Shown: positions 48,345 to 62,897 of the stretch, one piece after another
Layout: each line of letters opens with the position of its first letter
How positions within the stretch are numbered: position 1 is the stretch's first letter
DNA from: Spirochaetia bacterium
Lineage (GTDB): Bacteria; Spirochaetota; Spirochaetia; CAKZLE01
Direction of reading: 5' to 3'
Assembly: GCA_963677595.1 (NCBI GenBank)
Contig: OY782041.1
Span: 1,248,001 to 1,312,000, forward strand
DNA length: 64,000 nt
Made by a program: the position numbers and the translations under genes
The notes under the pieces: model-generated
The model's database searches: none
The model's input: the letters and a program-made list of their open reading frames with translations, nothing else
What the model was told of the DNA's origin: nothing

Positions 48345-48556
48345 AAATCCTGTTTCTCCTGTACGAGGGTTACCTGTAGTGTCAAATCATTCTATAGAGT
48401 CGCAAGAAAAAATTAAAGTGCTATGGGACAATTCTTTGCTAAAAACAGGGCGTTTGTCTCCACGTGCCGTTCCTGCGCAGATTCCGCTGTCCCAGACTGC
48501 ATGATGCGGGTAATCCATGCTATAATAGGAAGATCCCGTATACAGGAGGATCCCGT

Positions 48557-48889
48557 ATGACTCAGGAACTGACCGAGTTCTCCAGGAGGGTGATCACCCT
48601 CATCCGACAGATCCCGGAGGGGCATGTCGCCACCTACGGCCAGATCGCACGCCTGGCAGGTTCCCCGCGAGGGGCTCGGCAGGTCGTCAGGCTGCTGCAC
48701 TCCTCCTCCCATACCTACAGCCTCCCCTGGCACCGCGTCATCAACCGGCAGGGACGGATCTCCCTGGCATCAGGGGAGGGACTCGAGGAACAGGCGGCCC
48801 TCCTGCAGTCCGAAGGCATCCTGGTCTCCCCGGAAGGGTCGATCAACCTGGCGGCATACCTCTATTCCTTCGCGGGGGAGGGGGGCTGA
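48557..48889 (+). CDS. alkyltransferase-like protein (Atl/YbaZ, MGMT family)
   Basis: IPEGHVATYGQIA, ARQV and PWHRV (Trp in place of the catalytic Cys). Confidence 0.92.
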   Translation: MTQELTEFSRRVITLIRQIPEGHVATYGQIARLAGSPRGARQVVRLLHSSSHTYSLPWHRVINRQGRISLASGEGLEEQAALLQSEGILVSPEGSINLAAYLYSFAGEGG

Positions 48890-49009
48890 TCCCAGGCCGT
48901 CTGGAGCGGGTTCGCACGGGCATCACAACCCGGTGTTGTCCTTTTTGCGACAGGCTGCAACACTATGGGAGTTTTCTTATCTTTTTCCCGATTTCATCCC
49001 GCACCCATG

Positions 49010-49038
49010 TTGCATTTTACCGACAAAATAAGTATAAC
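49010..49038 (+). promoter_or_regulatory. pur operon promoter
   Basis: TTGCAT-17-TATAAC; predicted TSS about 49045. Confidence 0.75.
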
Positions 49039-49044
49039 TTGCCT

Positions 49045-49324
49045 ATGATCAACAATATAGCGAATGGCGCTGTAACGTTGAGAAATCAAGAGGTTATAGT
49101 ACATTGAATCGCCCGATCTCTGTTACCATACAAATGCTGGAAGACGTAAGAATCCCCTTTTTTATGCGGGATCACCTGCATGCGGTCAAGAAATTACAAG
49201 ATCACATGCAGACTGCGCATGCACCTGCTTGAACTGCGGCCCCGGAATGATTCCGGGGTCTTACTGTTTTCAGGGGCCTCCGGCGGGATTCGGGCCAAGA
49301 GACTGATGAAAGAGGGAGACATCT
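49045..49324 (+). ncRNA. candidate cis-regulatory leader (attenuator/riboswitch-like) of the pur operon
   Basis: 280 nt with a GAAA-tetraloop hairpin, alternative helices and a terminator; no known family recognised. Confidence 0.55.
49238..49270 (+). terminator. leader terminator upstream of purL
   Basis: GGCCCCGGAA-TGA-TTCCGGGGTC followed by TTACTGTTTT (imperfect U-tract). Confidence 0.65.
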
Positions 49325-51646
49325 ATGTCAGAAACACATGTTCTTTCGTATGACCTTCAGCAGATGGATGACCAGGCGATCGGGTCCCTGCTGAACGAAC
49401 ATACCATAGGGCTGACGATCGACGAGGCGAAGAAGCTGCAGTTCGATATCCTGCACCGGGCACCTACCCTTGCCGAACTGATCCTGTTCGGGATCGAGGG
49501 CTCTGAGCACTGCTCGTACAAGAGCAGCAGGCCGTACCTGAAACTGTTCACGACCGACGGAAAGGACGTCATCCTCGGGGCCAAGGAGGATGCCGGGATC
49601 GTACGGATCGCCGATGATAAGAGCGGAAAATCCTACGGGATCATCATGAGCCATGAGTCCCACAACCACCCGAGCCAGCTAGTCCCCTATGAGGGAGCTG
49701 CCACCGGGGTCGGGGGCAATGTCAGGGATGTCTGCTGCATGGGCGGGCAGGTCATAGCCCAGGCGGATGACCTGCGCTTCGGTTCCATCGACAACCCGAA
49801 GAACAAGTGGATCTATGAGGGAGTCGTCTCAGGGATCGCCGGCTACGGCAACCCCATCGGGGTGCCGAACCTCGGCGGGGGCCTGCAGTTCGACCCCGGG
49901 TATGATGACAACTGCCTGGTGACCGTCGTGTCGCTGGGGCTGATCGATGCCGATGCCATCGTCCACTCCTTCGCACCGAAGGACGCGGTCGGCTACGACT
50001 TGATCCTCGTCGGGAAACCTACTGACAACAGCGGGTTCGGGGGTGCGAGCTTCGCGAGCTTCGAGCTCGAGGAAGACCAGCACGAGCAGAACAAGGGAGC
50101 CGTCCAGGAACCCAACGCCTTCCTCGGCCGCCATATGATCAAGTCCTCAGTCGAGCTCTTCGAGAAGCTCAAGGCGATGGATGCCATTGACCGGATCGGT
50201 TTCAAGGACCTCGGGGCCGGCGGTATCGCCTGCGCCAGTGTCGAGCTCGTGGATGAGGCAGGGTACGGCGCAGTCGTCGAGGTGGAGCGGATCCACATCG
50301 CGGACGGCGAGTACGAACCCCATGTCATCCTCTGCGCTGAGACACAGGAACGGTACATGTGGGTCTCCCCGAAAGACCTGACTCCCATGATCCTCGACCA
50401 TTACAACAAGGAATACGCACTGCCGGAGATCTCCAAGGGTGCGGCTGCGAAGGTGATCGGGTACGTCACCGAAGAGACCGATTATGTCGTGACCTACCAC
50501 GGGGCGAAGCTCGTAGACGCACCGGCATCAGAGGTCACGAAGGGATTCCTCTACTATAGGGAGGTCGGGGAGTTGAGAACCCCGCCGGAGGAGCCTTCGA
50601 TCCCGGCACCGGAAGACTACAACCAGGTGCTCCTCGACCTGCTCGCCTCCGAGAACATCGCATCACGTCACCCGCTCTATGAGCAGTATGACAAACAGGT
50701 CCAGGGAAGGACGGCTGTCGAGGCCGGTGCCGGGGATTCCGGCATCATGACCCCGTTCAATGACGCGGCCTACCCTGAGGAGCTCAGGAAGGTGGCAGTC
50801 ACCCTGACCACGGACCAGAACCCGAGGCAGAATCGGATCGATGCCTACCAGGGAGCCGTCAATGCGGTCGCCGAGGCCTACTGCAACACGGTAGCCTGCG
50901 GGGCTGTCCCTGTGGCACTCTCGGACTGCCTCTGCTACGGCAACCCTGAGAAGCCGGAGCAGATGCGGCTCTTCGTCGACGGCTGCAAGGGAGTGGCAGA
51001 CGCCTCCTCCTTCTTCAGCATCCCCGTGATCGCGGGGAACGTCTCCCTCTACAATGAATCGGGCAACGGCTCGATCCCACCGAGTCCGATGATCGCGGTG
51101 CTTGGCAGGATCGAGGACGTGACGACAGCGCTGGGCAGCCACATCCCCGAAGGGGAGTATGAGCTGCTCCTTGCAGGGAAGCGGAAACCCGAACTCGGGG
51201 GAAGCGTCTACTACCAGCTCGCGGGGAAGACCGGGAACTCGATCCCGAGACCGGACCTCAAGGAGCTCCAGTCTATCGGGACGGCGATCGGGGCATGTGC
51301 CGCAGAGCACCTGATCTCAGCCTGCCATGATATCTCGGAAGGGGGCCTGGCAGTAGCCCTGAGCGAGATGCTCTTTACCAGCGGGATCGGGGCACGTGTC
51401 TCGGTGACGGACGGGATCGACCCCGTATCATTCCTCTTCGGGGAATCATTCGGGTTCATCCTCGCTGTGAAGAAAGACGACCTGACAGCATGTACAGAAC
51501 AGTTCGCCGCAGAGGGAGTCTCCCTCATACCCCTGGGAACCACCACCCCTGGGAACGGGGAGATCGTGGTCGGGGAGCTCATCTCCCTGCCGGTGGAGAA
51601 AGCCAAGTACGAATGGCTGCATGGACTACGAAGGAGATTATCATGA
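49325..51646 (+). CDS. purL: FGAM synthase subunit PurL (small type)
   Basis: SEHCSYKSS, ESHNHPS, GAATGVGG, DLGAGG, GNVSLYN and HDISEGG motifs. Confidence 0.96.
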   Translation: MSETHVLSYDLQQMDDQAIGSLLNEHTIGLTIDEAKKLQFDILHRAPTLAELILFGIEGSEHCSYKSSRPYLKLFTTDGKDVILGAKEDAGIVRIADDKSGKSYGIIMSHESHNHPSQLVPYEGAATGVGGNVRDVCCMGGQVIAQADDLRFGSIDNPKNKWIYEGVVSGIAGYGNPIGVPNLGGGLQFDPGYDDNCLVTVVSLGLIDADAIVHSFAPKDAVGYDLILVGKPTDNSGFGGASFASFELEEDQHEQNKGAVQEPNAFLGRHMIKSSVELFEKLKAMDAIDRIGFKDLGAGGIACASVELVDEAGYGAVVEVERIHIADGEYEPHVILCAETQERYMWVSPKDLTPMILDHYNKEYALPEISKGAAAKVIGYVTEETDYVVTYHGAKLVDAPASEVTKGFLYYREVGELRTPPEEPSIPAPEDYNQVLLDLLASENIASRHPLYEQYDKQVQGRTAVEAGAGDSGIMTPFNDAAYPEELRKVAVTLTTDQNPRQNRIDAYQGAVNAVAEAYCNTVACGAVPVALSDCLCYGNPEKPEQMRLFVDGCKGVADASSFFSIPVIAGNVSLYNESGNGSIPPSPMIAVLGRIEDVTTALGSHIPEGEYELLLAGKRKPELGGSVYYQLAGKTGNSIPRPDLKELQSIGTAIGACAAEHLISACHDISEGGLAVALSEMLFTSGIGARVSVTDGIDPVSFLFGESFGFILAVKKDDLTACTEQFAAEGVSLIPLGTTTPGNGEIVVGELISLPVEKAKYEWLHGLRRRLS

Positions 51647-52719
51647 GTATCAGTTATAAATCAGCGGGCGTCGATATCGAGGCCGGTAACGAGACAGTGG
51701 AGAAGATCAAGGAGAGTGCGCTCTCGACCTTCTCGCCTGAGGTACTGACAGGCCTCGGGAGCTTCGGCTCCTTCTATGACCTGAAGCAGGTCGTCAATGA
51801 GTACGACCATCCGGTCATGGTCCAGAGCATCGACGGTGTCGGGACCAAGATCATGGTGGCATCCATGCTCGATGACTACTCCACGATCGGCAGGGACCTG
51901 CTGAGCGCCTGCTGCAACGATATCATCGTGCACGGCGCCAAGCCGGTGACCTTCCTCGACTATATCGCCAATGACAAGCTCATCCCCGAGGTGGTCGCAC
52001 AGATGGTCCGAGGCATGGCTGACGGCTGCATCGAGGCCGGGGTGAGCCTGGTAGGCGGTGAGACTGCCGAGATGCCGGGCACCTACCGGGAGGGCGAGCA
52101 TGACCTCGTCGGGATCGTGACGGGCTTCGTCGAGAAGGACGGGATCATCAACGGCCAGGATGTCGTCCCCGGGGACCTCATCTTCGGCATCCCCTCGAGC
52201 GGGCTCCATACCAACGGCTACTCACTCGCACGGAAGGTACTCTTCGACCATGCGGGGCTCACGGTTGACGATACCGTACCTGCCTCGTTCGGCGAGACCG
52301 GCGGGAAGACCATCGGGCAGATCCTCCTCGAGCCGCACACCAACTATGCCGCGGCAGTCCTCAGGATGCTCGAGTCCGGCCTCACGGTGAAGAGCATGTC
52401 CCATATCACGGGAGGGGGGCTCATCGAGAACGTCCCGAGGACCCTGCCTAAGGATGTTTCAGCCGTGATCGACCCGGAGAGCTGGGAGACACCGGCTATC
52501 TTCGCCTACATGGCAGAACTCGGGTCCATCCCCGCAGTCGAGATGTTCCATGCCTTCAATATGGGGATCGGGTACACTATCGTCGTCCCGGCAGAAGAGA
52601 AGGATACGGCACTGCAGGTCATCGGTGACAGCTTCGGCTGTGAGCCGGTACTGCTCGGCACGATAGAACGGGGGGACGGGCAGACCGTCATCACCGGCAT
52701 CACAGGAGGAGAGGCATGA
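51643..52719 (+). CDS. purM: AIR synthase
   Basis: YKSAGVD, DGVGTK, GGETAEMPG, HTNGYSL, HITGGG and FNMG motifs; ATGA overlap with purL. Confidence 0.96.
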   Translation: MSISYKSAGVDIEAGNETVEKIKESALSTFSPEVLTGLGSFGSFYDLKQVVNEYDHPVMVQSIDGVGTKIMVASMLDDYSTIGRDLLSACCNDIIVHGAKPVTFLDYIANDKLIPEVVAQMVRGMADGCIEAGVSLVGGETAEMPGTYREGEHDLVGIVTGFVEKDGIINGQDVVPGDLIFGIPSSGLHTNGYSLARKVLFDHAGLTVDDTVPASFGETGGKTIGQILLEPHTNYAAAVLRMLESGLTVKSMSHITGGGLIENVPRTLPKDVSAVIDPESWETPAIFAYMAELGSIPAVEMFHAFNMGIGYTIVVPAEEKDTALQVIGDSFGCEPVLLGTIERGDGQTVITGITGGEA

Positions 52720-54011
52720 AGATCGGAGTGATCCAGTTCCCGGGCACGAACTGTGAACGGGAGACTGCAGAGGCAGTCCGCAGGGCAGGCATGGAGCCGG
52801 TCGGACACCGATGGAACATGGACGAAGAGCTGCTCGGCACCTATGACGGGTTCATCATCGCCGGCGGGTTCTCCTATGAGGACCGGAGCCGTTCGGGCAT
52901 CATCGCGGCCCAAGACCCGATCATGGACCGGATCAAGGCAGAGAGCGCAAAGGGCAAGCCCGTCCTCGGCATCTGCAACGGGGCGCAGATCCTCGTGGAG
53001 TCGGGACTGGTTCCCGGTGCCCCCGGGTACAGACAGGCAGTCGCCCTGTCAACGAACCAGCGGACCGAAGGAGGCGAAGTCCTCGGTACCGGCTTCTACA
53101 ATGCGTGGATCAATATAAAGCATGACGGTTCACCGAAGCAGTGCGCGTTCACCTCGGAACTCACGGACGGGGAGATGATGAGGATCCCTGCCGCCCATGC
53201 GGAAGGCAGGTTCCTGATCCCGGAAGAGCTCCTCTCCTATATGATCGACCATAAGATGACCGTGTTCAGGTATGCCGATGATGACGGCAGCTATGACCCT
53301 GACTTCCCGGTCAACCCCAACGGCTCGGTCTACAATATCGCGGGGATCACCAATGAGACAGGTTCGGTCCTGGCCCTCATGCCCCACCCGGAGCGGACTC
53401 CGGCCGGTGACGGGATCTTCTCCTCGATGCGGAAGTACATCGAGGAGCATCGACCCTTCTCCGGGGAGACCGGGACTTCGATCCCGCCAGAACTCGCCGC
53501 CGTCGCCCATGCCCCTGAGGCCTATACACCAGCTGCCGAAGCAGAACAGGTCACCGTTGGCCTCGTCATCACCGATAACGAGGCGGTCTCAGTGGAGAAC
53601 GCCCTCAGGCTGCGGGGGATCCCTGCAGCAGTCCGCAGGCATGTCCACTGGGAGATCGCACTCGATGAGACCCTCACCGCAGAACAGCGTACGGCAGTCC
53701 TGGAGCAGATCGATGCGAGCGGGGAGCTCTACAACTCGAACAAGGAGTTCGTCATCACCTCCCCGCTGTCGACCGAAACCCATGCAGTCTCGTTCCTCGT
53801 ACGGGAGAATGATGACTGCGTCGGGGACCATACGACCCATGCCCTGAAGAGCTGGTTCTCGATCGATGGGATCGAGCAGCTGCGGCACGGTGTCATCTGG
53901 ACGATCATCCCCGATCGTGCAGATGATGCAGAGGAAGTCATAGCGCAGGTCGAGGCGACCCACCTGCTTGCCAACCCCATAGCCCACAGGAGGATGACCT
54001 ATGAGAGCTGA
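52716..54011 (+). CDS. purQ: FGAM synthase glutaminase PurQ fused to two C-terminal PurS-like domains
   Basis: FPGTNC, GGFSYED, GICNG (Cys) and MPHPER, plus ~160 extra aa ending LLANPIAH. Confidence 0.9.
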   Translation: MKIGVIQFPGTNCERETAEAVRRAGMEPVGHRWNMDEELLGTYDGFIIAGGFSYEDRSRSGIIAAQDPIMDRIKAESAKGKPVLGICNGAQILVESGLVPGAPGYRQAVALSTNQRTEGGEVLGTGFYNAWINIKHDGSPKQCAFTSELTDGEMMRIPAAHAEGRFLIPEELLSYMIDHKMTVFRYADDDGSYDPDFPVNPNGSVYNIAGITNETGSVLALMPHPERTPAGDGIFSSMRKYIEEHRPFSGETGTSIPPELAAVAHAPEAYTPAAEAEQVTVGLVITDNEAVSVENALRLRGIPAAVRRHVHWEIALDETLTAEQRTAVLEQIDASGELYNSNKEFVITSPLSTETHAVSFLVRENDDCVGDHTTHALKSWFSIDGIEQLRHGVIWTIIPDRADDAEEVIAQVEATHLLANPIAHRRMTYES

Positions 54012-54993
54012 CCAGAAGGATTACCGAGACATCATCGCGAGGCACCTCGACAACTGCCTCACCGAGACCGACCTCTCCCTGCCGAACAAGAAGCGCGGGA
54101 AGGTCCGCGACAGCTACAGCCTCGACGGGAAGATGGTGTTCGTCACCACTGATCGGCAGAGTGCCTTCGACCGGATCCTGGCATCCGTCCCCTTCAAGGG
54201 ACAGGTCCTGAACCTCACCAGCGCCTGGTGGTTCGCTAACACCTCGCATATCGTGCCCAACCACCTGGTCGAGGTCCCGGACCCCAATACCACGGTAGGG
54301 AAGACCTGCACCGTCTTCCCCATCGAGTTCGTCATGCGCGGCTATATCACGGGGACGACCGATACGTCGTTATGGACCCAATACAACAATGGGGTACGGA
54401 ACTACTGCGGGATCGACTTCCCGGAGGGCCTCTCCAAGAACCAGAAGCTCGATACGCCGGTGATCACCCCGACGACCAAGGAGGAGCACCATGACCGCCC
54501 CATCTCCCCGAAGGAGATCGTGGAAGAGGGGTGGATGAGTGCATCAGACTGGGAAGCCGCGAGCACCTATGCCTACAACCTCTTCACCTACGGCCAGAAA
54601 GTCGCCGCCGAGCACGGCCTCATCCTCGTGGACACGAAATACGAGATGGGTAAGGATGCCGACGGAAACATCATGGTGATCGATGAGATCCATACCCCTG
54701 ATTCCAGCCGGTACTGGCTCGCAGACTCCTATGAGAAGCGGATCGCCGAAGGACTGGAGCCGAAGAACATCGACAAGGAGTTCCTCCGCCTCTGGTTCAG
54801 GGAACACTGCGACCCCTACCATGACGAGGTCCTGCCGAAGGCCCCGGACGAGCTCATCATCGAGCTCTCTGCGCGGTACATCCAGCTGTACGAACAGATC
54901 ACGGGAGAGCAGTTCGAGTTTCCCGGTGAAGATGAACAGGACGTCCCGGCCGCCCAGCGGCTGGTGAAGAACCTCGAAGCGTATATCGACTGA
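54001..54993 (+). CDS. purC: SAICAR synthetase (long type)
   Basis: GKVRD, TDRQSAFD, TPTTK, DTKYE and DEIHTPDSSRYW motifs. Confidence 0.95.
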   Translation: MRADQKDYRDIIARHLDNCLTETDLSLPNKKRGKVRDSYSLDGKMVFVTTDRQSAFDRILASVPFKGQVLNLTSAWWFANTSHIVPNHLVEVPDPNTTVGKTCTVFPIEFVMRGYITGTTDTSLWTQYNNGVRNYCGIDFPEGLSKNQKLDTPVITPTTKEEHHDRPISPKEIVEEGWMSASDWEAASTYAYNLFTYGQKVAAEHGLILVDTKYEMGKDADGNIMVIDEIHTPDSSRYWLADSYEKRIAEGLEPKNIDKEFLRLWFREHCDPYHDEVLPKAPDELIIELSARYIQLYEQITGEQFEFPGEDEQDVPAAQRLVKNLEAYID

Positions 54994-55009
54994 AGGAATG
55001 GAGTGAGTA

Positions 55010-55435
55010 ATGAAGAAAATCGTAATTATCATGGGATCGTCATCTGACAAACCGCATGCTGACAAGATCATCGATGGGCTCCAGAAGGCAGAGGGATACG
55101 ACATGTCAGAGTACTCGATCGATGTCTATACCGCTTCAGCCCATAAGGAACCGCTGAAGGTCTTAGGTGTCCTCGATGCCCACAAGGAGCTTGAGGCTGT
55201 CGTCTACATCACGATCGCGGGCCGCTCGAACGCCCTCTCTGGCTTCTGTGCCGCGAACTGCACCTTCCCCGTCATCGCCTGCCCACCTTTCGCAGACAAG
55301 GTCGACATGATGGTGAACATCAACTCGACATTGCAGATGCCGAGCAGGACACCGGTACTGACGGTCATCGATCCCGGCAATGCCGCCCTTGCGGCAATGC
55401 GGATCCTCTCACTCGCCGACGGGAGTGATGCCTAG
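55010..55435 (+). CDS. purE: AIR carboxylase, probably class II
   Basis: MGSSSD, SAHK, IAGRSNALSG and S.LQMP motifs; no purK in the operon. Confidence 0.9.
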   Translation: MKKIVIIMGSSSDKPHADKIIDGLQKAEGYDMSEYSIDVYTASAHKEPLKVLGVLDAHKELEAVVYITIAGRSNALSGFCAANCTFPVIACPPFADKVDMMVNINSTLQMPSRTPVLTVIDPGNAALAAMRILSLADGSDA

Positions 55436-56881
55436 ATGTGCGGCGTAGTCGGCATCATCGGGGAGAGCCCGGTCGCCACGGAGATCTATGACTCCCTGGT
55501 ACAGCTGCAGCACCGAGGACAGGACGCTGCCGGTATCATCACCTGCAATGACAGCCTCCATATAAAGAAGGGGGCCGGCTTGGTCCGCGATATCTTCCAG
55601 GCACGCCATATGGAACGGCTCCAGGGGAATATGGGTATCGGCCATACCCGGTACCCCACTGCCGGGGCGAAAAGCAACGATGAGGTCCAGCCGTTCGTGA
55701 CCAGCGTCCCCAACGGCATCGCCTTTGCCCATAACGGGAACATCGTGAACTACCTGGAGCTGCGCAATGAAGTCATCTCCAACCGGAAACGCTATCTCAA
55801 CTCCTACAGCGACTCCGAGATGCTCATGCAGCTCTTCGCTGACGTCCTGCAGCGGTGCATCGGCCACAACCCCGCACACCTGATCAGCGACAATACCTTC
55901 TTCGACGGGCTGTGTATATCGGCCTCCGAACTCTTCGGGGCAGCACAGGGCTCGATCTCAGCCGTCTCGGTCATCAAGGACCGCGGCTTGATCGCCTTCA
56001 GGGATCCCCACGGGATCCGCCCCCTGGTCATGGGCGAACGGCTGAGTGCGAGCGGGAGGAAGGAGTATATCTTCGCCTCCGAGGATTCCATGTTCTATAT
56101 GCTTGGCTACACCCTAGTACGGGACGTGGCTCCCGGTGAGATCATCTACATCAATGAGAAGGGGGACTTCTTCTCCCGGGTCGTCCAGCATGACAAGTTC
56201 ACCCCCTGCATCTTCGAGTATGTCTACTTCGCGAGACCTGACACCTGGATGAACAACATCAACATCTACCGGTCCCGCCTGAGGATGGGGGAGAACCTCG
56301 GGAACCTCTGGATCAGGAAGTACGGGGAGCTCCGGCCTGATGTCATCATCCCGGCCCCCTCGACCTCCAATACCATGGCGCTCTCCATGGCAAAGAAGCT
56401 GGGAGTGAACTACTCCGAGGGACTCTACAAGAACACCTTCATCGGCAGGACCTTCATCATGGCCGACCAGAAGCAGCGGCGCCAGTCGGTACGCTACAAG
56501 CTGGTGCCCCAGAGACTGGAGATCCAGGGGAAGGACGTGATGATCGTCGACGACAGCATCGTCAGGGGTACGACCAGCAGAGAGATCGTCCGGATGGTCA
56601 AGGAGTTCGGGGCGAACAAGGTCTACTTCGTCTCTGCCTGCCCCCCGGTCACCAACCCCTGCTTCTACGGGGTCGACATCCCCACCTCGGAGGAGCTGAT
56701 CGCCTCCAACAAGAGCGTAGAGGAGATCAGAACCTTCCTCGAGGCGGAGATCCTCCTCTACCAGGAGATCGACGACCTGATCGAGGCCGTGACCAGGAAG
56801 GGTGACCACCATATCGACACACCCTGCTATGCCTGTCTCGGCGGGACCTATATCCACAAGGAGAAAGAGGCCAGAACATGA
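55436..56881 (+). CDS. purF: amidophosphoribosyltransferase
   Basis: MCG N-terminal Cys, QHRGQD, GHTRYPT, CIFEYVYFARPD and VDDSIVRGTT motifs. Confidence 0.97.
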   Translation: MCGVVGIIGESPVATEIYDSLVQLQHRGQDAAGIITCNDSLHIKKGAGLVRDIFQARHMERLQGNMGIGHTRYPTAGAKSNDEVQPFVTSVPNGIAFAHNGNIVNYLELRNEVISNRKRYLNSYSDSEMLMQLFADVLQRCIGHNPAHLISDNTFFDGLCISASELFGAAQGSISAVSVIKDRGLIAFRDPHGIRPLVMGERLSASGRKEYIFASEDSMFYMLGYTLVRDVAPGEIIYINEKGDFFSRVVQHDKFTPCIFEYVYFARPDTWMNNINIYRSRLRMGENLGNLWIRKYGELRPDVIIPAPSTSNTMALSMAKKLGVNYSEGLYKNTFIGRTFIMADQKQRRQSVRYKLVPQRLEIQGKDVMIVDDSIVRGTTSREIVRMVKEFGANKVYFVSACPPVTNPCFYGVDIPTSEELIASNKSVEEIRTFLEAEILLYQEIDDLIEAVTRKGDHHIDTPCYACLGGTYIHKEKEART

Positions 56882-58191
56882 AACAGATACTCATAGTAGG
56901 CTCAGGGGCACGTGAACATGCCCTTGCATACAGCCTGCATCGCTCACAGAGCACATCAGCACTCTACTGTATCGGCTCAGCAGTGAACCCCGCAGTCAGG
57001 GACCTCTGCGCGGGGTACACCGTCGGTGACATCACCGACGGGGAGTACATCCTCGAGACAGCAAAAGACTGGGGCATCGAGCTCGCGGTCATCGGGCCGG
57101 AAGCACCATTGAGCACCGGGGTAGCCGACATCCTGAGAGCCGGTGGGATCGACGTCTTCGGCCCGGATGAGGACCTTGCCCGGATCGAGACCAGCAAGTC
57201 CTATACGCGGGACCTCCTCTCCGGCTGCGTGCCTGATGCCAGCCCGGTCTACCGGGTAGTCCGGACCCATGAGGAGGCTGAGACGCTCCTCGAGGAACTC
57301 GGCGAGTTCTATGTCATCAAGGCAGACGGGCTGAAAGGCGGAAAGGGCGTCCAGGTCGCCGGGGACCATCTCCACAGCCATGGGGAAGCACTCAGCTTTG
57401 TCGACACCCTGCTCTCCGAGAGCGGGCAGTGCGTCATAGAGGAGAAGCTCATCGGGCAGGAGTTCTCCCTCATGACCATCACGGACGGGGAGACCTCGAT
57501 CCACCTCCCGGCCGTACAGGACCACAAGAGAGCCTTCAACGGTGACACCGGTCCCAATACCGGCGGGATGGGTAGCTACTCAGACCATGACGGGTCCCTC
57601 CCCTTCCTGAAGCCAGAAGACATCGAAGAGGCTCGCAGGCTCAATGAGGCAGTCATCGCAGCCCTTGCCGTCGATAACGGAAAACCCTACCGGGGAGTCC
57701 TCTACGGCGGCTTCATGGCAGTGAAGGAAGGCGTCAAGATCATCGAGTACAATGCCCGGTTCGGGGACCCCGAGGTCATGAACCTGGTATCGATCATACA
57801 GGCGGACTTCGTCGAGCTCTTCAGCCATGCAGCAGAAGGCACCCTCTCTGAGGCATCGATCGAGATCCTCGATAAGGCCTCCGTCTGCAAGTATGTCGTT
57901 CCGAACGGCTACCCCTCAGTATCGAACCGGGGAGCCGAGATAGACATCAGTGAGGTCGATGACTCCTGCAGGCTCTTCCTCGGGTCGGTAGACCTGAAGG
58001 ACGGGGTGCTCGTGACCGGCGGGTCCAGGACCGCGGCATGCATCGCCCTCGGGGAGACCATCGAGGAGGCTGAGCGTATCGCAGAGGCACAGATCGGGAG
58101 GATCAGGGGCGACCTCTTCCACCGGGATGACATCGGGACGAGCGAACTGGTCGCTTCCCGGGTCAAGGCCATGCGGGAGCTGCGTTCATGA
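56878..58191 (+). CDS. purD: phosphoribosylamine-glycine ligase
   Basis: GSGAREHA, GPEAPL, KADGL.GGKGV, QDHKR, GPNTGGMG and EYNARFGDPE motifs. Confidence 0.96.
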   Translation: MKQILIVGSGAREHALAYSLHRSQSTSALYCIGSAVNPAVRDLCAGYTVGDITDGEYILETAKDWGIELAVIGPEAPLSTGVADILRAGGIDVFGPDEDLARIETSKSYTRDLLSGCVPDASPVYRVVRTHEEAETLLEELGEFYVIKADGLKGGKGVQVAGDHLHSHGEALSFVDTLLSESGQCVIEEKLIGQEFSLMTITDGETSIHLPAVQDHKRAFNGDTGPNTGGMGSYSDHDGSLPFLKPEDIEEARRLNEAVIAALAVDNGKPYRGVLYGGFMAVKEGVKIIEYNARFGDPEVMNLVSIIQADFVELFSHAAEGTLSEASIEILDKASVCKYVVPNGYPSVSNRGAEIDISEVDDSCRLFLGSVDLKDGVLVTGGSRTAACIALGETIEEAERIAEAQIGRIRGDLFHRDDIGTSELVASRVKAMRELRS

Positions 58192-58796
58192 ACGTCCCCA
58201 GGCCGATCGCCGTCCTCGGCTCCACCCGGGGTACAGACATGCAGGCGATCATCGATGCCATCGCAGGGGGCTCGCTCTCCGCTGAGATCACGGTAGTGGT
58301 CTCGGACAGGAAGAGGGCCGGGATCCTCGAGCGGGCACGGGACCATATGATCGAGGCGGTACACATCCCGGCACGTTCGGGTGGTGTCCGTAAAGAACGC
58401 GAGGAGTATGACCGTGAAGTCGATGCAGTCCTGCAGCGACATAAACCGGAGATCATCCTCCTCATCGGCTACATGAGGATCGTATCGCCCTGGTTCTGCT
58501 CACAGTGGGCCGACCGCCTGGTCAATGTCCACCCCTCCCTGCTCCCCGACTTTGCCGGGGGCATGGACGGTGATGTCCATTCGGCAGTCATCGCTGCGGG
58601 CAGAAAGGAGACCGGCTGCACGGTCCACCTGGTGACTGAGGAGGTCGACGGGGGACCGATCCTGCTGCAGAAGCGATGTCCGGTCCTCCCCGGGGACACG
58701 CCGGACACGCTGAAAGCGAGAGTCCAGCAGCTTGAGGGAGAAGCCCTCATAGAAGTGATCAAGGAGTATGAGCCAGATTCCAGATTCACCTGTTGA
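58188..58796 (+). CDS. purN: GAR transformylase
   Basis: GYMRI, NVHPSLLP, GCTVH and VDGGPI motifs. Confidence 0.95.
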   Translation: MNVPRPIAVLGSTRGTDMQAIIDAIAGGSLSAEITVVVSDRKRAGILERARDHMIEAVHIPARSGGVRKEREEYDREVDAVLQRHKPEIILLIGYMRIVSPWFCSQWADRLVNVHPSLLPDFAGGMDGDVHSAVIAAGRKETGCTVHLVTEEVDGGPILLQKRCPVLPGDTPDTLKARVQQLEGEALIEVIKEYEPDSRFTC

Positions 58797-58872
58797 GAAT
58801 CTGGCCTTGGAAGTTTTTTTAAAGAGGATCTCATCGTGAGATTCCCTCGTGACAACCACAAAGAGGTAAGAG

Positions 58873-60423
58873 ATGAACAAACAACCGACAACGGTACGAC
58901 GGGCACTGCTGTCTGTCTCAGACAAGAGCGGCATCGTCGAATTCGCACGCGGACTCAGCGAGATGGGAGTCGAGCTGGTATCGACCGGCGGGACTAAGCG
59001 GGTACTCAAGGAGAATGGTATCCCCGTCCGCGGTGTATCGGAGCTGACCGGATTCCCTGAGATGATGGACGGAAGGGTCAAGACCCTCCATCCCCTCGTC
59101 CATGGGGGGATCCTCGGGCTGCGGGATGAACACGCACAGGCGGCGGAGGAACACGGCATTCCCTGGATCGACATGGTCGTCGTCAACCTCTACCCATTCG
59201 AGGCTACGATCCAGGACCCTGAGGTGAAGCTCGATGATGCGATCGAGCAGATCGATATCGGGGGACCGACGATGATCAGGTCAGCGGCGAAGAACGTCGG
59301 CTGGGTCTCGGTGATCGTGAACCCCTCGGACTACGAGGCTGTCCTCGGTGAGCTGAAGGACAACGGTACGGTAGCCTATGAGACCCGCAGCCGCCTCTGT
59401 GCAGCGGCATTCAGGCATACCGCGCAGTATGATGCACTGATCCAGGCCTACCTCACCGAGGAGGAGTACCCCGAGGAGGTGACCCTCACCTATCGGAAGT
59501 TCTCCCCCCTGCGATACGGAGAGAACCCCCACCAGCGTGCAGCTGCCTATAAAGAGATCGTCCCCCCTGCGAAGAAGGAGGCCCTCTCGATCCTCGATGC
59601 GGAGATCCTGAACGGGAAGGAACTCTCCTACAACAACCTCAATGATGCCACCGGCACCATCGAGACCCTCAGGGAGTTCACAGAACCCGCCTGCATCGTC
59701 GTGAAGCACGCAAATCCCTGCGGGGCAGCGACCGGGGAAGACCTCCTCGAGGTCACCAAAGCCGCATTCGAGGCGGACCGGCTCTCAGCCTTCGGGGGAC
59801 TCGTTGCCATCAACCGGACCTGCACTAAGGAGATTGCCCAGTACTTCAGGAAGATATTCTTTGAGATCTTCATGGCGCCCGACTATGAGCCCGAGGCGCT
59901 GGAGATCCTGAAGCAGAAGAAGAACCTCAGGGTCCTCAGGCTCGGGGACGTACCACCGCTCAACCCCATCAGGTTCAACAAGTTCGTCGGCGGCGGCCTG
60001 CTCCTCCAGGACAGGGACTGCTCTCTCATCAGCGAAGGAGACCTGAAGGTCGTGACCGATTCCGCCCCCTCAGACGGGGAGGTCAGCGACATGCTCTTCG
60101 CCTGGAAGGTCCTCAAGCATGTGAAGTCCAACGGCATCCTCACCGCGAAGGACCAGGTCACCCTCGGTATCGGGCCCGGACAGGTCTCGCGTGTCGATGC
60201 GGTCAAGATCGCGCTGGGCAAGTCGGCAGTGACCGAAGGGGCCGTCCTGGCCTCTGACGCCTTCTTCCCCTTCCGGGACAGCATCGATGAGATCGCACAG
60301 ACCGGCATCAGGGCGATCATCCAGCCGGGAGGCTCAGTCCGGGACCAGGAGGTCATCGACGCCTGCAACGAGCACGGGATCGCGATGGTCTTCACCGGCA
60401 CACGCTGCTTCAACCACGGCTAA
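58873..60423 (+). CDS. purH: bifunctional AICAR transformylase/IMP cyclohydrolase
   Basis: ALLSVSDK, GRVKTLHP, IDIGGP, LRYGENPHQ, KHANPCG, SDAFFPF and IIQPGGS motifs. Confidence 0.97.
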   Translation: MNKQPTTVRRALLSVSDKSGIVEFARGLSEMGVELVSTGGTKRVLKENGIPVRGVSELTGFPEMMDGRVKTLHPLVHGGILGLRDEHAQAAEEHGIPWIDMVVVNLYPFEATIQDPEVKLDDAIEQIDIGGPTMIRSAAKNVGWVSVIVNPSDYEAVLGELKDNGTVAYETRSRLCAAAFRHTAQYDALIQAYLTEEEYPEEVTLTYRKFSPLRYGENPHQRAAAYKEIVPPAKKEALSILDAEILNGKELSYNNLNDATGTIETLREFTEPACIVVKHANPCGAATGEDLLEVTKAAFEADRLSAFGGLVAINRTCTKEIAQYFRKIFFEIFMAPDYEPEALEILKQKKNLRVLRLGDVPPLNPIRFNKFVGGGLLLQDRDCSLISEGDLKVVTDSAPSDGEVSDMLFAWKVLKHVKSNGILTAKDQVTLGIGPGQVSRVDAVKIALGKSAVTEGAVLASDAFFPFRDSIDEIAQTGIRAIIQPGGSVRDQEVIDACNEHGIAMVFTGTRCFNHG

Positions 60424-60650: not shown

Positions 60651-62897
60651 ATGAACCAGGAAACAAAAGAGTCTATCGTCAAACTCATCATCGAGGAGAA
60701 CCCCGAGATCTACCAGATCCTCAAGGACCCGGCACTCGGACAGAGACAGGGACTGAACCGGATCTGGAAGGTGATCCTGAGGATGCTGCAGGAGCATCCC
60801 AAGGCATTCGGGTACTACACCGGGAAGGAACAGGGGGAGAAGGCGTTCTTCAAGCTCTCCTGGCGTGATTTTGCCTTCATCAGGGTCCTTGATTACCTCG
60901 AGTACGAAGGGGACTCCTTCCCAGATCAGAATCTCCACGGCGAGGAGGTCGTCTCCCGGCCGTTCGGCCTGATCAAGGAGGCTATCCAGACCGGCAGGTA
61001 TGAGGCCTCCATCGATTTCTATGAGGATATGCTCCACCTGCTCAGGCAGCTTAACGGGATAGAGCGGCCCGAGATACCCTCCAGGCAGAAGGTCATGGAC
61101 TGGATGGGCGGCCACCCATCAGGTCTCGATGAGGAGATCCGGCATATGCGGGAGCGCAACAAGCAGCGGATCATCCGGCTCATCTATGAAGATATACAGG
61201 GTGCCGAACAACAGAGCGGCAGGTTCACCCTCGATGAGGATATGGACTCGCACACAGCCCTCAACCAGCTGCAGGCATGGTGGGACAATGACATGTTCCA
61301 CCTCAAGTACGCCGTGAGAAGTGTCGAGGGACTGCAGCGCTACCTCGGCGGGTCGCTCTCCGACGAGACGATCACGGTGATGAGCGATGCAGTGAGCAAG
61401 GGGATCCCCATCTTCGTGACCCCCTACTTCCTCTCACTGCTGCTCATAGACCCCTACAAGAAGTACCAGTATGCCGATATAGCCATCAGGGACTATGTCC
61501 TCTACTCCCGGGAACTCGTCGATGAGTTCGGGTCCATATCAGCATGGGAGAAGGAGGATGTCATGGAGCCCGGCAAGCCGAATGCGGCAGGCTGGATACT
61601 CCCATCCAACAACATCCACCGCCGGTACCCCAATGTCGCCATCTTCATCCCCTCCACCATGGGCCGTGCCTGCGGTGGGCTGTGCGCATACTGCCAGAGG
61701 ATGTACGACTTCCAGAACGGCCGCTTCAACTTCGACCTCGAGAAGCTCAAGCCGAAGGAGAACTGGTCCTCACGGTTAGAGAAGCTGATGAAGTACTTCG
61801 AGGAGGACTCCCAGCTCCAGGATATCCTGATCACCGGTGGGGATGCCATGATGAGCTCTGTCGATGCCCTCAAGGAGGTCCTCGATGCAGTCTATACCAT
61901 GGCCGTGAACAAGATCGAGGCGAACAGGCTGCGCGAGGATGGTGAGAAGTATGCCGAGATCATTCGCGTCCGGCTCGGGACGAAGATTCCCATCTACCTG
62001 CCCCAGAGGATCTCAGACTGGAGGGTCGCGGTCCTCAAGGCCTTCAAGGAGAAGGCCGAGCAGGTGGGCATCAAGCAGTTCATCATCCAGACGCACTTCT
62101 CCACCGCCATGGAGATCACCCCGGAGGCAGCCCGTGCAGTATCGAGGCTGCTCGAGGCCGGGTGGACAGTGACCAACCAGGAGGTGTTCACCGTCGCTGC
62201 CTCCAGAAGGGGCCATACGGCGAAGCTCCGCCAGACCCTGAACACCATCGGTGTCCTGCCCTACTACACCTTCACGGTGAAGGGGTACCATGAGAACAAG
62301 CATTTCTTCGCAAATAACTCACGCTCCATCCAGGAGCAGATCGAGGAGAAATCGATCGGCAGGGTCGACCCCAAGTACTACAGCAAGATACGAAGCTTCA
62401 TGAAGACCCCCAACCATATGAAGGAGCAGATCGAGGAGCTCAGGAGTGCCGAGGAGATCCCATTCCTCGCTACCGACAGGAACACGATCAACCTCCCCGG
62501 GGTCGGGAAGAGCAATACCTACCGGACCATCGGGATCACGGCAGACGGCAGGAGGATCCTGGCCTTCAACCAGGACCACAGCCGGCCGCACAGCCCGATC
62601 GTGGACACGATGCAGGAAGTCATCATCATCGAGTCGAAGTCAGTCGCCTCCTACCTGAGGCAGCTCGAGACCATCGGGGAGAAACCTGATGAGTACCGGA
62701 GCATCTGGGGGTATTCAGCCGGCTACATCGAACCGAGGATCCCGATCTACGAGTACCCGGGGTATCCCTTCGCCACCACGAAGGAGTACACGAACCTCGA
62801 GCTCGCCCCTGAGCAGAAGGAAGAGATCAGGAGCAGGGCAACAGAGGTTCAGTTCACCGACATCGATACCGAGATCAACGAAGGCTACACGGACTGA
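60651..62897 (+). CDS. long KamA-family (lysine/glutamate 2,3-aminomutase-like) radical SAM protein
   Basis: CGGLCAYC, ILITGGD, QTHF, NQEV, PYY and NLPGVGK (PLP-Lys position), plus a ~300-aa N-terminal extension. Confidence 0.85.
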   Translation: MNQETKESIVKLIIEENPEIYQILKDPALGQRQGLNRIWKVILRMLQEHPKAFGYYTGKEQGEKAFFKLSWRDFAFIRVLDYLEYEGDSFPDQNLHGEEVVSRPFGLIKEAIQTGRYEASIDFYEDMLHLLRQLNGIERPEIPSRQKVMDWMGGHPSGLDEEIRHMRERNKQRIIRLIYEDIQGAEQQSGRFTLDEDMDSHTALNQLQAWWDNDMFHLKYAVRSVEGLQRYLGGSLSDETITVMSDAVSKGIPIFVTPYFLSLLLIDPYKKYQYADIAIRDYVLYSRELVDEFGSISAWEKEDVMEPGKPNAAGWILPSNNIHRRYPNVAIFIPSTMGRACGGLCAYCQRMYDFQNGRFNFDLEKLKPKENWSSRLEKLMKYFEEDSQLQDILITGGDAMMSSVDALKEVLDAVYTMAVNKIEANRLREDGEKYAEIIRVRLGTKIPIYLPQRISDWRVAVLKAFKEKAEQVGIKQFIIQTHFSTAMEITPEAARAVSRLLEAGWTVTNQEVFTVAASRRGHTAKLRQTLNTIGVLPYYTFTVKGYHENKHFFANNSRSIQEQIEEKSIGRVDPKYYSKIRSFMKTPNHMKEQIEELRSAEEIPFLATDRNTINLPGVGKSNTYRTIGITADGRRILAFNQDHSRPHSPIVDTMQEVIIIESKSVASYLRQLETIGEKPDEYRSIWGYSAGYIEPRIPIYEYPGYPFATTKEYTNLELAPEQKEEIRSRATEVQFTDIDTEINEGYTD

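Follow-up and report, generated by a model that had tools for sequence, protein, structure and literature searches.

A candidate ribosome-coupled attenuator ahead of the de novo purine operon in Spirochaetia

Results

The purine operon and its relatives

The window, by which we mean the whole stretch of 64,000 nucleotides analysed here, comes from a spirochaete genome of 4.3 Mb in one contig (the host genome, G000). Its plus strand carries the de novo purine operon purL-M-Q-C-E-F-D-N-H (49325..60423), assigned from open reading frames (ORFs) and their NCBIfam and Pfam matches; the purE product scores below the NCBIfam cut-off and above that of Pfam AIRC. A Shine-Dalgarno (SD) sequence, GAGGGAG, is recognised ahead of purL (49312..49318, plus strand). 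The purQ ORF (52716-54011) encodes 431 residues, with family matches confined to residues 1-228 and zero NCBIfam or Pfam matches in the C-terminal 200. Because a separate purS or purK is not seen in the operon, these 200 residues may be fused, diverged PurS domains. On the upstream side, a gene for an Atl/ogt-like alkylated-DNA binding protein (48464-48889) precedes the pur promoter, similar sequence being found upstream in several relatives, and no plus-strand terminator was scored after it. On the downstream side, an ORF of 748 amino acids (60651-62897) has no Pfam match at E 0.001; its CxxxCxxC motif hints at a radical-SAM aminomutase.

The relatives of this purL are Spirochaetia MAGs. Of 401 genomes in the class, 23, belonging to five families, carry this type. 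Our sample comprises 24 distinct regions upstream of purL, metagenome loci included, of which 17 were examined first (training leaders) and seven later (held-out leaders). Loci with absent upstream DNA (L006, L043, L217) were left out before counting, and duplicates and near-duplicates (L127-L131, and repeats within L039-L056 and L212-L230) were removed. Non-spirochaete purL loci stand outside the counts; they were viewed by eye over 230 nt (L052-L118) or pattern-screened (L134-L206).

Promoter and terminator of the purL leader

A sigma70-type promoter is predicted before the operon (49010..49038, plus strand), with a -35 box TTGCAT (49010-15) and a -10 box TATAAC (49033-38) separated by 17 nt. 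An initial annotation of this DNA had proposed the same promoter, and both boxes are indeed present and conserved in alignment A1; the pair is absent from the output of a consensus scanner. From the sequence, we infer a transcription start near 49045. The intrinsic terminator proposed by the same annotation was scored as well and is predicted at 49238..49269 on the plus strand, with a stem of 10 pairs (49238-60), a CCGGGG 3' arm followed by TTACTGTTT, and the tail TTACTGTTTT.

In 22 of the 24 leaders, promoter and purL are separated by a terminator, which in 18 of the 22 is 23-75 nt from purL; this agrees with the earlier description of the region as an undescribed attenuator of the de novo purine operon. 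Since no -10-like word occurs after the terminator in 20 of these 22 leaders, purL expression likely needs read-through. The CCGG(G/A)G 3' arm is found in 21 of 23 leader hairpins and in 3 of 118 gene-end terminators, a count to be read with the fact that the training hairpins were found via CCGGGG; of the held-out hairpins, four of six have this arm. The hairpin of leader L226 is without a CCGG arm. The leader of the window also folds better than its shuffles (z -3.7, 0/200).

A putative translated leader ORF

A predicted ORF of 42 codons, missed by the initial annotation, lies in the leader (49104..49232, plus strand), running from a TTG start at 49104 to a TGA at 49230-32, with its stop 5 nt 5' of the terminator stem. 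Its SD sequence, AAGAGG (49088..49093, plus strand), is invariant in alignment A1 and binds the genome's own 16S tail at a predicted -7.0 kcal/mol, and leader L003 has ATG where the window has TTG. The peptide matches no NCBIfam or Pfam family. In 22 of the 24 leaders there is an ORF of 21-64 codons, which begins with a weak TTG or GTG in 11 of them. The stop falls between -2 and 13 nt ahead of the stem in 16 of these leaders, and in the other six the ORF continues through the stem. The exceptions in the sample are L231, which is without a terminator, and L233, which is without an ORF.

Two rules were applied to the leaders. A strict SD rule is passed by 16 of 17 training leaders, with a per-leader shuffle rate of 0.03-0.16, and by two of six held-out leaders against 0.6 expected. 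An energy rule, scoring the SD against the host genome's own 16S tail, is passed by 15 of 17 training leaders (2.8 expected) and five of six held-out leaders (1.4 expected). The counts under both rules overstate independence because the rules were fixed after the training leaders had been seen and because the leaders form about ten related groups; the training terminators had moreover been located by CCGGGG. As a control, the energy rule was applied to the other leader terminators of the host genome, where it is passed in 0 of 15 cases.

The stop codon of the purL leader sits in a zone of spacing that the gene-end terminators of the host genome shun: none of these 118 terminators lies within 6 nt of the stop and seven lie within 12, the median being 28. 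The reach of a ribosome along the transcript is put at 14-16 nt. In the part of PMC7858274 that bears on this point, short spacing between stop and terminator is a proxy for uncoupled transcription, with masking of the terminator where ribosomes trail the polymerase; the spacing of the gene-end terminators in the host genome is what such masking would lead one to expect. For E. coli, passages of PMC4824070 describe a stop 28 bp ahead of a terminator, with termination about 90% efficient; relocating the stop to 5 bp brought the efficiency below 10%. They also describe repression of the terminator at 5 bp, with none beyond 27 nt.

These spacings also bear on the idea that the ORF is a chance occurrence or a small gene, equipped with a terminator of its own, purL being expressed by leak or from another promoter. 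Individual shuffled leaders do pass the rule for the ORF 4-49% of the time, as this explanation would have it, but the stop spacing is one that gene-end terminators avoid, the gap between terminator and purL is short and nearly always free of a -10-like word (see the counts above), and the peptide is not conserved. We find this explanation hardly credible.

Comparison of the leaders indicates what is being conserved. Among the five closest leaders, spacings between anchors within the ORF (58, 9, 29/32/35, 18) differ by multiples of 3 only, which is not the case outside the ORF. Across 17 leaders, the two other frames contain 33 and 20 stops. Single-base codon differences have a synonymous to non-synonymous ratio of 29:85, and of 13:31 in a second group, where neutral change would give a ratio near 1:3. 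Since the frame stays open, the spacings shift in threes and the codon differences are near neutral, selection, as far as sequence comparison can tell, acts on translation and not on the peptide. In leader L005 (G005:C59), the TTG is out of frame, and the TGA of a 10-codon ORF overlaps the ATG of a 33-codon ORF that has its own SD, retains the old stop and reaches the terminator, an arrangement of two ORFs that looks like compensation for a slipped start.

A sensing of the nascent peptide or of the release step, in which a metabolite would hold the ribosome at the leader stop and so block the terminator, could account for the final residue being Ala in 12 of the 16 ORFs that stop before the stem, six of them ending in Pro-Ala-stop. 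We give this little credence, as the peptide drifts neutrally, the six read-through leaders have no such ending and the Pro-Ala-stop is encoded by a conserved hairpin arm, CCUGCAUGA.

Outside the spirochaetes, the pattern screen of purL loci L134-L206 gave zero matches. The nearest non-spirochaete purL genes (L052-L118) belong to Marinimicrobia and Gammaproteobacteria and mostly lie directly 3' of another gene. By eye, they are without such a leader, which suggests that this type of operon moved between phyla and that the leader is a spirochaete addition.

Other nucleotide genes were also inspected. The upstream regions of guaB and hpt/purA showed, by eye, no ORF-terminator design. A similar attenuator before an nrdD-like gene was considered and rejected, the GTG ORF and hairpin of the host genome not being kept in four relatives; a similar hairpin occurs in L271 only, there without an ORF with a good SD. 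In L268 (G000 C1:2162360-2162600, minus strand), the nrdD-like leader contains a hairpin of the form CCGG..CCGGGG together with a minimal ATG-TAG ORF whose SD is modest; over its promoter lies a conserved palindrome, which presumably resembles an NrdR box.

Leader folding and the question of a riboswitch

The initial annotation interpreted the leader as a candidate riboswitch responsive to purine, ZMP or PRPP, and proposed several pairing elements. Its first hairpin (49069..49100, plus strand) can be drawn from GCTGTAAC (49069-76) and GTTATAGT (49093-100), with the cap TTGA-GAAA-TCAA (49078-89) also present, but it is possible in the host genome only: the four closest relatives retain 10 of the 32 pairs of its stem and 8 of the 16 in its cap. 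It also competes with a hairpin over the leader SD, and buries part of that SD itself. The proposed switch between pairing of 49176-87 with 49200-11 and pairing of TGCATGCG (49177-84) with CGCATGCA (49216-23) exists on both sides in the window, but the alternative keeps only 22 of 32 pairs. Likewise, GTAAGA..CCCC (49146-57) is complementary to 49255-64 as described, but this pairing is not conserved (16/24 plus 14/16 pairs kept in the four closest relatives) and engages the 3' arm of the terminator. At the moment of the termination decision, the terminator 3' arm is still within the polymerase.

Other helices are better kept in the same four relatives. A hairpin over the leader-ORF SD, with the start codon in its loop (49080..49120, plus strand), keeps 43 of 44 pairs, and is confined to two genera of the family. 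An internal hairpin, ATCCC/GGGAT (49152..49172, plus strand), is a candidate pause hairpin and keeps 19 of 20 pairs. Just before the terminator on the same strand, three UGCA-type segments (49176-82, 49205-11, 49225-31) can pair as 1:2 or 2:3, again as candidate pause hairpins; helix 1:2 keeps 24 of 28 pairs, and helix 2:3, which the initial annotation had missed, 25 of 28.

In the alignment of the SD hairpin, 96% of cells are paired, with one A-U to U-A double change and invariant internal mismatches, and covariation is not beyond that of shuffles (44 of 500 as high). When 23 genomes were searched with a model of this hairpin, scoring 150 candidates per genome, five had a strong match, in each case a single-copy purL leader that had gone into the model; two further matches were weak (E 0.03 and 0.06). 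A multi-copy riboswitch was rejected on these matches. We read the SD hairpin as a probable delay on ribosome loading, yet, of what is left, it makes the strongest candidate for an aptamer or a protein site.

The covariance-model check of the leader against Rfam yielded no known family, among them guanine (RF00167), ZTP/pfl and ykkC-type PRPP/ppGpp, as the initial annotation had supposed: nothing reached the gathering score, and E<=10 gave unrelated chance matches only. The leaders of 20 relatives gave zero Rfam matches, and RF00167 was not found in the host genome, in which control families were detected. No antiterminator is shared across the leaders: folding without the terminator draws on different pairings each time, and even at its best costs 6-27 kcal/mol in 16 of the 17 leaders (the exception, L050, is at 0). 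A new riboswitch class would be expected to have an aptamer that covaries across lineages, as well as an expression platform able to pair with the terminator 5' arm. Neither was found, and the leaders have nothing in common beyond the terminator and ORF geometry.

A new riboswitch could still be envisaged, with an aptamer for purine, ZMP, PRPP or ppGpp acting on the terminator directly or, through the SD hairpin, on initiation at the leader ORF. The absence of Rfam matches, the double change and invariant mismatches of the SD hairpin, and the alternative pairings 1:2 and 2:3 kept within the family would fit such an element. Nevertheless, the SD hairpin is single copy and limited to two genera, whereas ORF and terminator extend across five families, its covariation does not exceed that of shuffles, and the energy penalty above leaves no shared antiterminator. 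Because there is neither a shared aptamer nor a conserved antiterminator, because the pairing with 49255-64 involves the terminator 3' arm and because the hairpin is single copy in two genera, the ligand-binding riboswitch of the initial annotation is unsupported, and we hold a riboswitch of either kind to be unlikely. From the sequences compared here, the conserved element of the switch is the leader ORF, predicted to be translated.

Operator-like repeats at pur and carAB

Two repeats missed by the initial annotation accompany the promoter, neither assigned to a strand. The inverted repeat TGTTG-N19-CAACA (48934..48962) is a candidate operator, and TGTTGCA over the -35 box (TGTTG-N8-CGACA, 49008..49025), recognised in the sequence, is a second candidate site. 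Both recur before carA in the host genome and, whole or in part, in four relatives, TGTTG-N19-CAACA being found there in G000, G001, G002, G003 and G005. A promoter pattern GTTGCA..TAnAA is present in 15 of 17 training leaders, and related half-site pairs precede a Bmp-family ABC transporter, an adenine deaminase/permease pair, a queuosine-precursor transporter and a ygfK cluster.

In several genomes, TGTTGCA/TGCAACA sites lie at the pur and carAB promoters, with half-site pairs near genes of nucleoside/purine transport and catabolism. Those of the host genome are at C1:1434309 (L264), C1:426920 (L263), C1:3954386 (L265), C1:99387 (L266) and C1:3977188 (L267); others are at L255, L259, L260, L262 and L246, and one site precedes glutamate dehydrogenase in G003. 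Upstream of purL in L231 (G224), the terminator is lost, about five sites of this kind occur and an ORF overlaps the purL start.

These sites make up a candidate transcription-factor regulon covering pur and carAB, and an operator common to both suggests a second layer of control. In E. coli, PurR controls carAB; TGTTGCA/TGCAACA presumably matches neither the E. coli nor the B. subtilis PurR box. A B. subtilis-type PurR was not found, with 0 matches to its PuR_N domain in the host genome, which is 95.4% complete. The sequence AAAUCAAGAGGUU, which we take to resemble a PyrR binding loop, was also considered, and the idea was dropped: none of the 7 non-PurF PRTase matches scanned reaches the PyrR cut-off, and the Rfam PyrR element has no match in the leader.

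The purine-NTP signal

TG and CA are 1.37-fold and 1.35-fold enriched in the leaders and TGCA occurs 50 times against 9.8 expected, where coding background gives 1.07, 1.06 and 1.19, and backgrounds are about 1.1-1.3. The five-fold excess of TGCA is equal in frames 1 and 2 and peaks 20-40 nt before the stem, and CG and TA steps are depleted in the leaders. The TG/CA excess could come from palindromic stems alone. Pyrimidine-then-G forms part of the elemental pause signal, according to the portion of PMC12288461 that concerns pausing.

Two other kinds of evidence were discarded. Purine-tract enrichment was not found, the A+G content of the leader ORF being 0.52 and five-purine runs numbering 102 against 80 (p about 0.05, and p 0.1 in lineage representatives). 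The consensus pause motif G-10/Y-1/G+1 is not enriched in the leaders (74 against 67), and is frequent in ordinary terminators, where 113 of 242 terminator-like matches carry it in their 3' arm. We infer a purine-NTP signal from the function of the operon, the CCGG(G/A)G arm and the excess of TG, CA and TGCA; that the polymerase senses purine NTPs directly is, in our judgement, an even bet.

The same occlusion by the ribosome might depend on a pause made by a protein with a purine effector. This protein would be either the TGTTGCA-binding regulator, placed as a roadblock within the leader, or one that binds the RNA at the UGCA hairpins. Full TGTTGCA half-sites do lie inside the leader ORFs of L009, L010, L050, L133, L225 (twice) and L232, the candidate operator is also present at carAB and further nucleotide genes, and the enrichment, frame independence and position of TGCA just described would fit; but most TGCA copies are without a TGTT flank, 49 of the 50 copies are base-paired in the predicted structures, and this genome, 95% complete, has no PuR_N domain, while none of the scanned PRTase matches exceeds the cut-off for PyrR. 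We regard a protein-made pause as rather unlikely.

Finally, the attenuator might read general translation capacity (ribosome loading, ppGpp or formyl-Met-tRNA supply), with purine-specific control coming from the operator. The weak start of half of the ORFs (11/22), the absence of purine tracts and the separate candidate operator are compatible with this, but the conserved CCGG(G/A)G arm and the UG/CA bias would be left unexplained, and the design is found at none of the 15 other leader terminators of the genome, which makes such a readout improbable.

Discussion

The leader is a real, conserved regulatory element, and its terminator is, summed over the variants considered above, very probably controlled by a ribosome. 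It is likely to be a purine version of the attenuation of E. coli pyrimidine genes, and not a new riboswitch. Our main reading, to which we assign a probability of about 0.5, is that of a pyrBI/pyrE-type ribosome-coupled attenuator, which would turn the purine operon on at low GTP or ATP.

According to this proposal, ribosome loading would be slowed by the weak start codon and, in the window's family, by the SD hairpin. With ample purine NTPs, the polymerase would outrun the ribosome, the terminator hairpin would fold and transcription would end near 49268. When GTP or ATP drops, the polymerase would stall at the pyrimidine-to-purine steps of the UG/CA-rich hairpins and at the CCGG(G/A)G run of the terminator 3' arm, where the step falls between CC and GG. 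The ribosome would then catch up and either rest on the stop codon or run through it, and the terminator could not fold because its 5' arm would be covered, so that purL-H would be transcribed. A separate DNA-binding regulator at the TGTTGCA/TGCAACA sites would set initiation, as at carAB. The most inclusive form of the proposal, which we place slightly below even odds, is a riboswitch-free GTP/ATP sensor in which the polymerase reads the CCGG(G/A)G and UG/CA steps and the leader ribosome converts the delay into read-through, a purine mirror of pyrBI in five spirochaete families, placed beneath a new regulon of TGTTGCA operators that takes in carAB as well.

If true, this would provide a purine counterpart of pyrimidine NTP-sensing attenuation, show selected GTP/ATP-sensitive pause signals without homopolymer tracts, indicate functional transcription-translation coupling in the window's spirochaete group and warn that structure-based riboswitch searches miss such leaders. 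About 22 natural leader variants exist, one of which (L057) comes from the cultured Alkalispirochaeta alkalica DSM 8900.

Comparison with known systems

Coupled NTP-sensing attenuation is textbook knowledge for E. coli pyrimidine genes, and purine operons are described under PurR repressors or riboswitches. Among titles and abstract openings, a search outside of which most subscription papers fall, we found neither a published purine-operon attenuator of such design nor the leader of the window.

The guanine, ZTP (pfl) and PRPP (ykkC 2b) riboswitches also act by premature termination before de novo purine genes, as summarised in part of PMC7266159, whereas the leader of the window is without an Rfam match or conserved aptamer and is spanned by an ORF predicted to be translated. 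Attenuators of the trp/his type share with it a leader peptide, alternative helices 1:2 and 2:3 and a terminator. Nevertheless, helix 2:3 of the window does not overlap the terminator, regulatory codon runs are absent, and the stop is <14 nt from the terminator, where amino-acid attenuators keep >20 bp in the account given in a section of PMC4824070. Candidate operators at the pur promoter and carAB recall PurR repression, of either the LacI type of E. coli or the PRTase type of B. subtilis, but the host genome lacks the PuR_N domain of the latter.

The nearest precedent for a purine NTP is Salmonella mgtM (mgtCBR), which also has a non-conserved peptide and for which the pertinent passages of PMC3641672 propose that a purine NTP is read via polymerase-ribosome coupling. 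In contrast to the leader of the window, mgtM works with conserved A runs and alternative stem-loops, has no intrinsic terminator, is active at high ATP and has virulence and transport genes under its control; the purL leader possesses an intrinsic terminator, serves a biosynthetic operon and is predicted to respond with the opposite sign.

The closest likeness is to E. coli pyrBI (pyrL) and pyrE (rph), where, in the parts of PMC4824070, PMC5021804, PMC3641672 and PMC7818426 devoted to them, a leader ORF lets a coupled ribosome block the intrinsic terminator of a nucleotide-biosynthesis operon. Low UTP slows the polymerase there and the coupled ribosome prevents the terminator, as the same portions of PMC5021804, PMC3641672 and PMC7818426 describe. 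The corresponding features are predicted in the window, namely an intrinsic terminator before the first gene and an SD-led ORF that ends within ribosome reach or, in some relatives, reads through. As in pyrBI and pyrE, an RNA antiterminator would not be needed, and translation would matter while the peptide sequence does not; the 135-bp pyrL frame of the papers just cited is similar in size to the leader ORF of the window. Unlike both systems, the leader of the window controls purine genes, in Spirochaetia, with no sequence relation seen. It also has no tract of the limiting nucleotide to set beside the U-rich stretch of pyrBI, the conserved CCGG(G/A)G arm and the TG/CA excess being its candidate pause signals, and the leaders of its type differ from pyrBI and pyrE in having weak TTG starts and an additional candidate operator over the -35 box.
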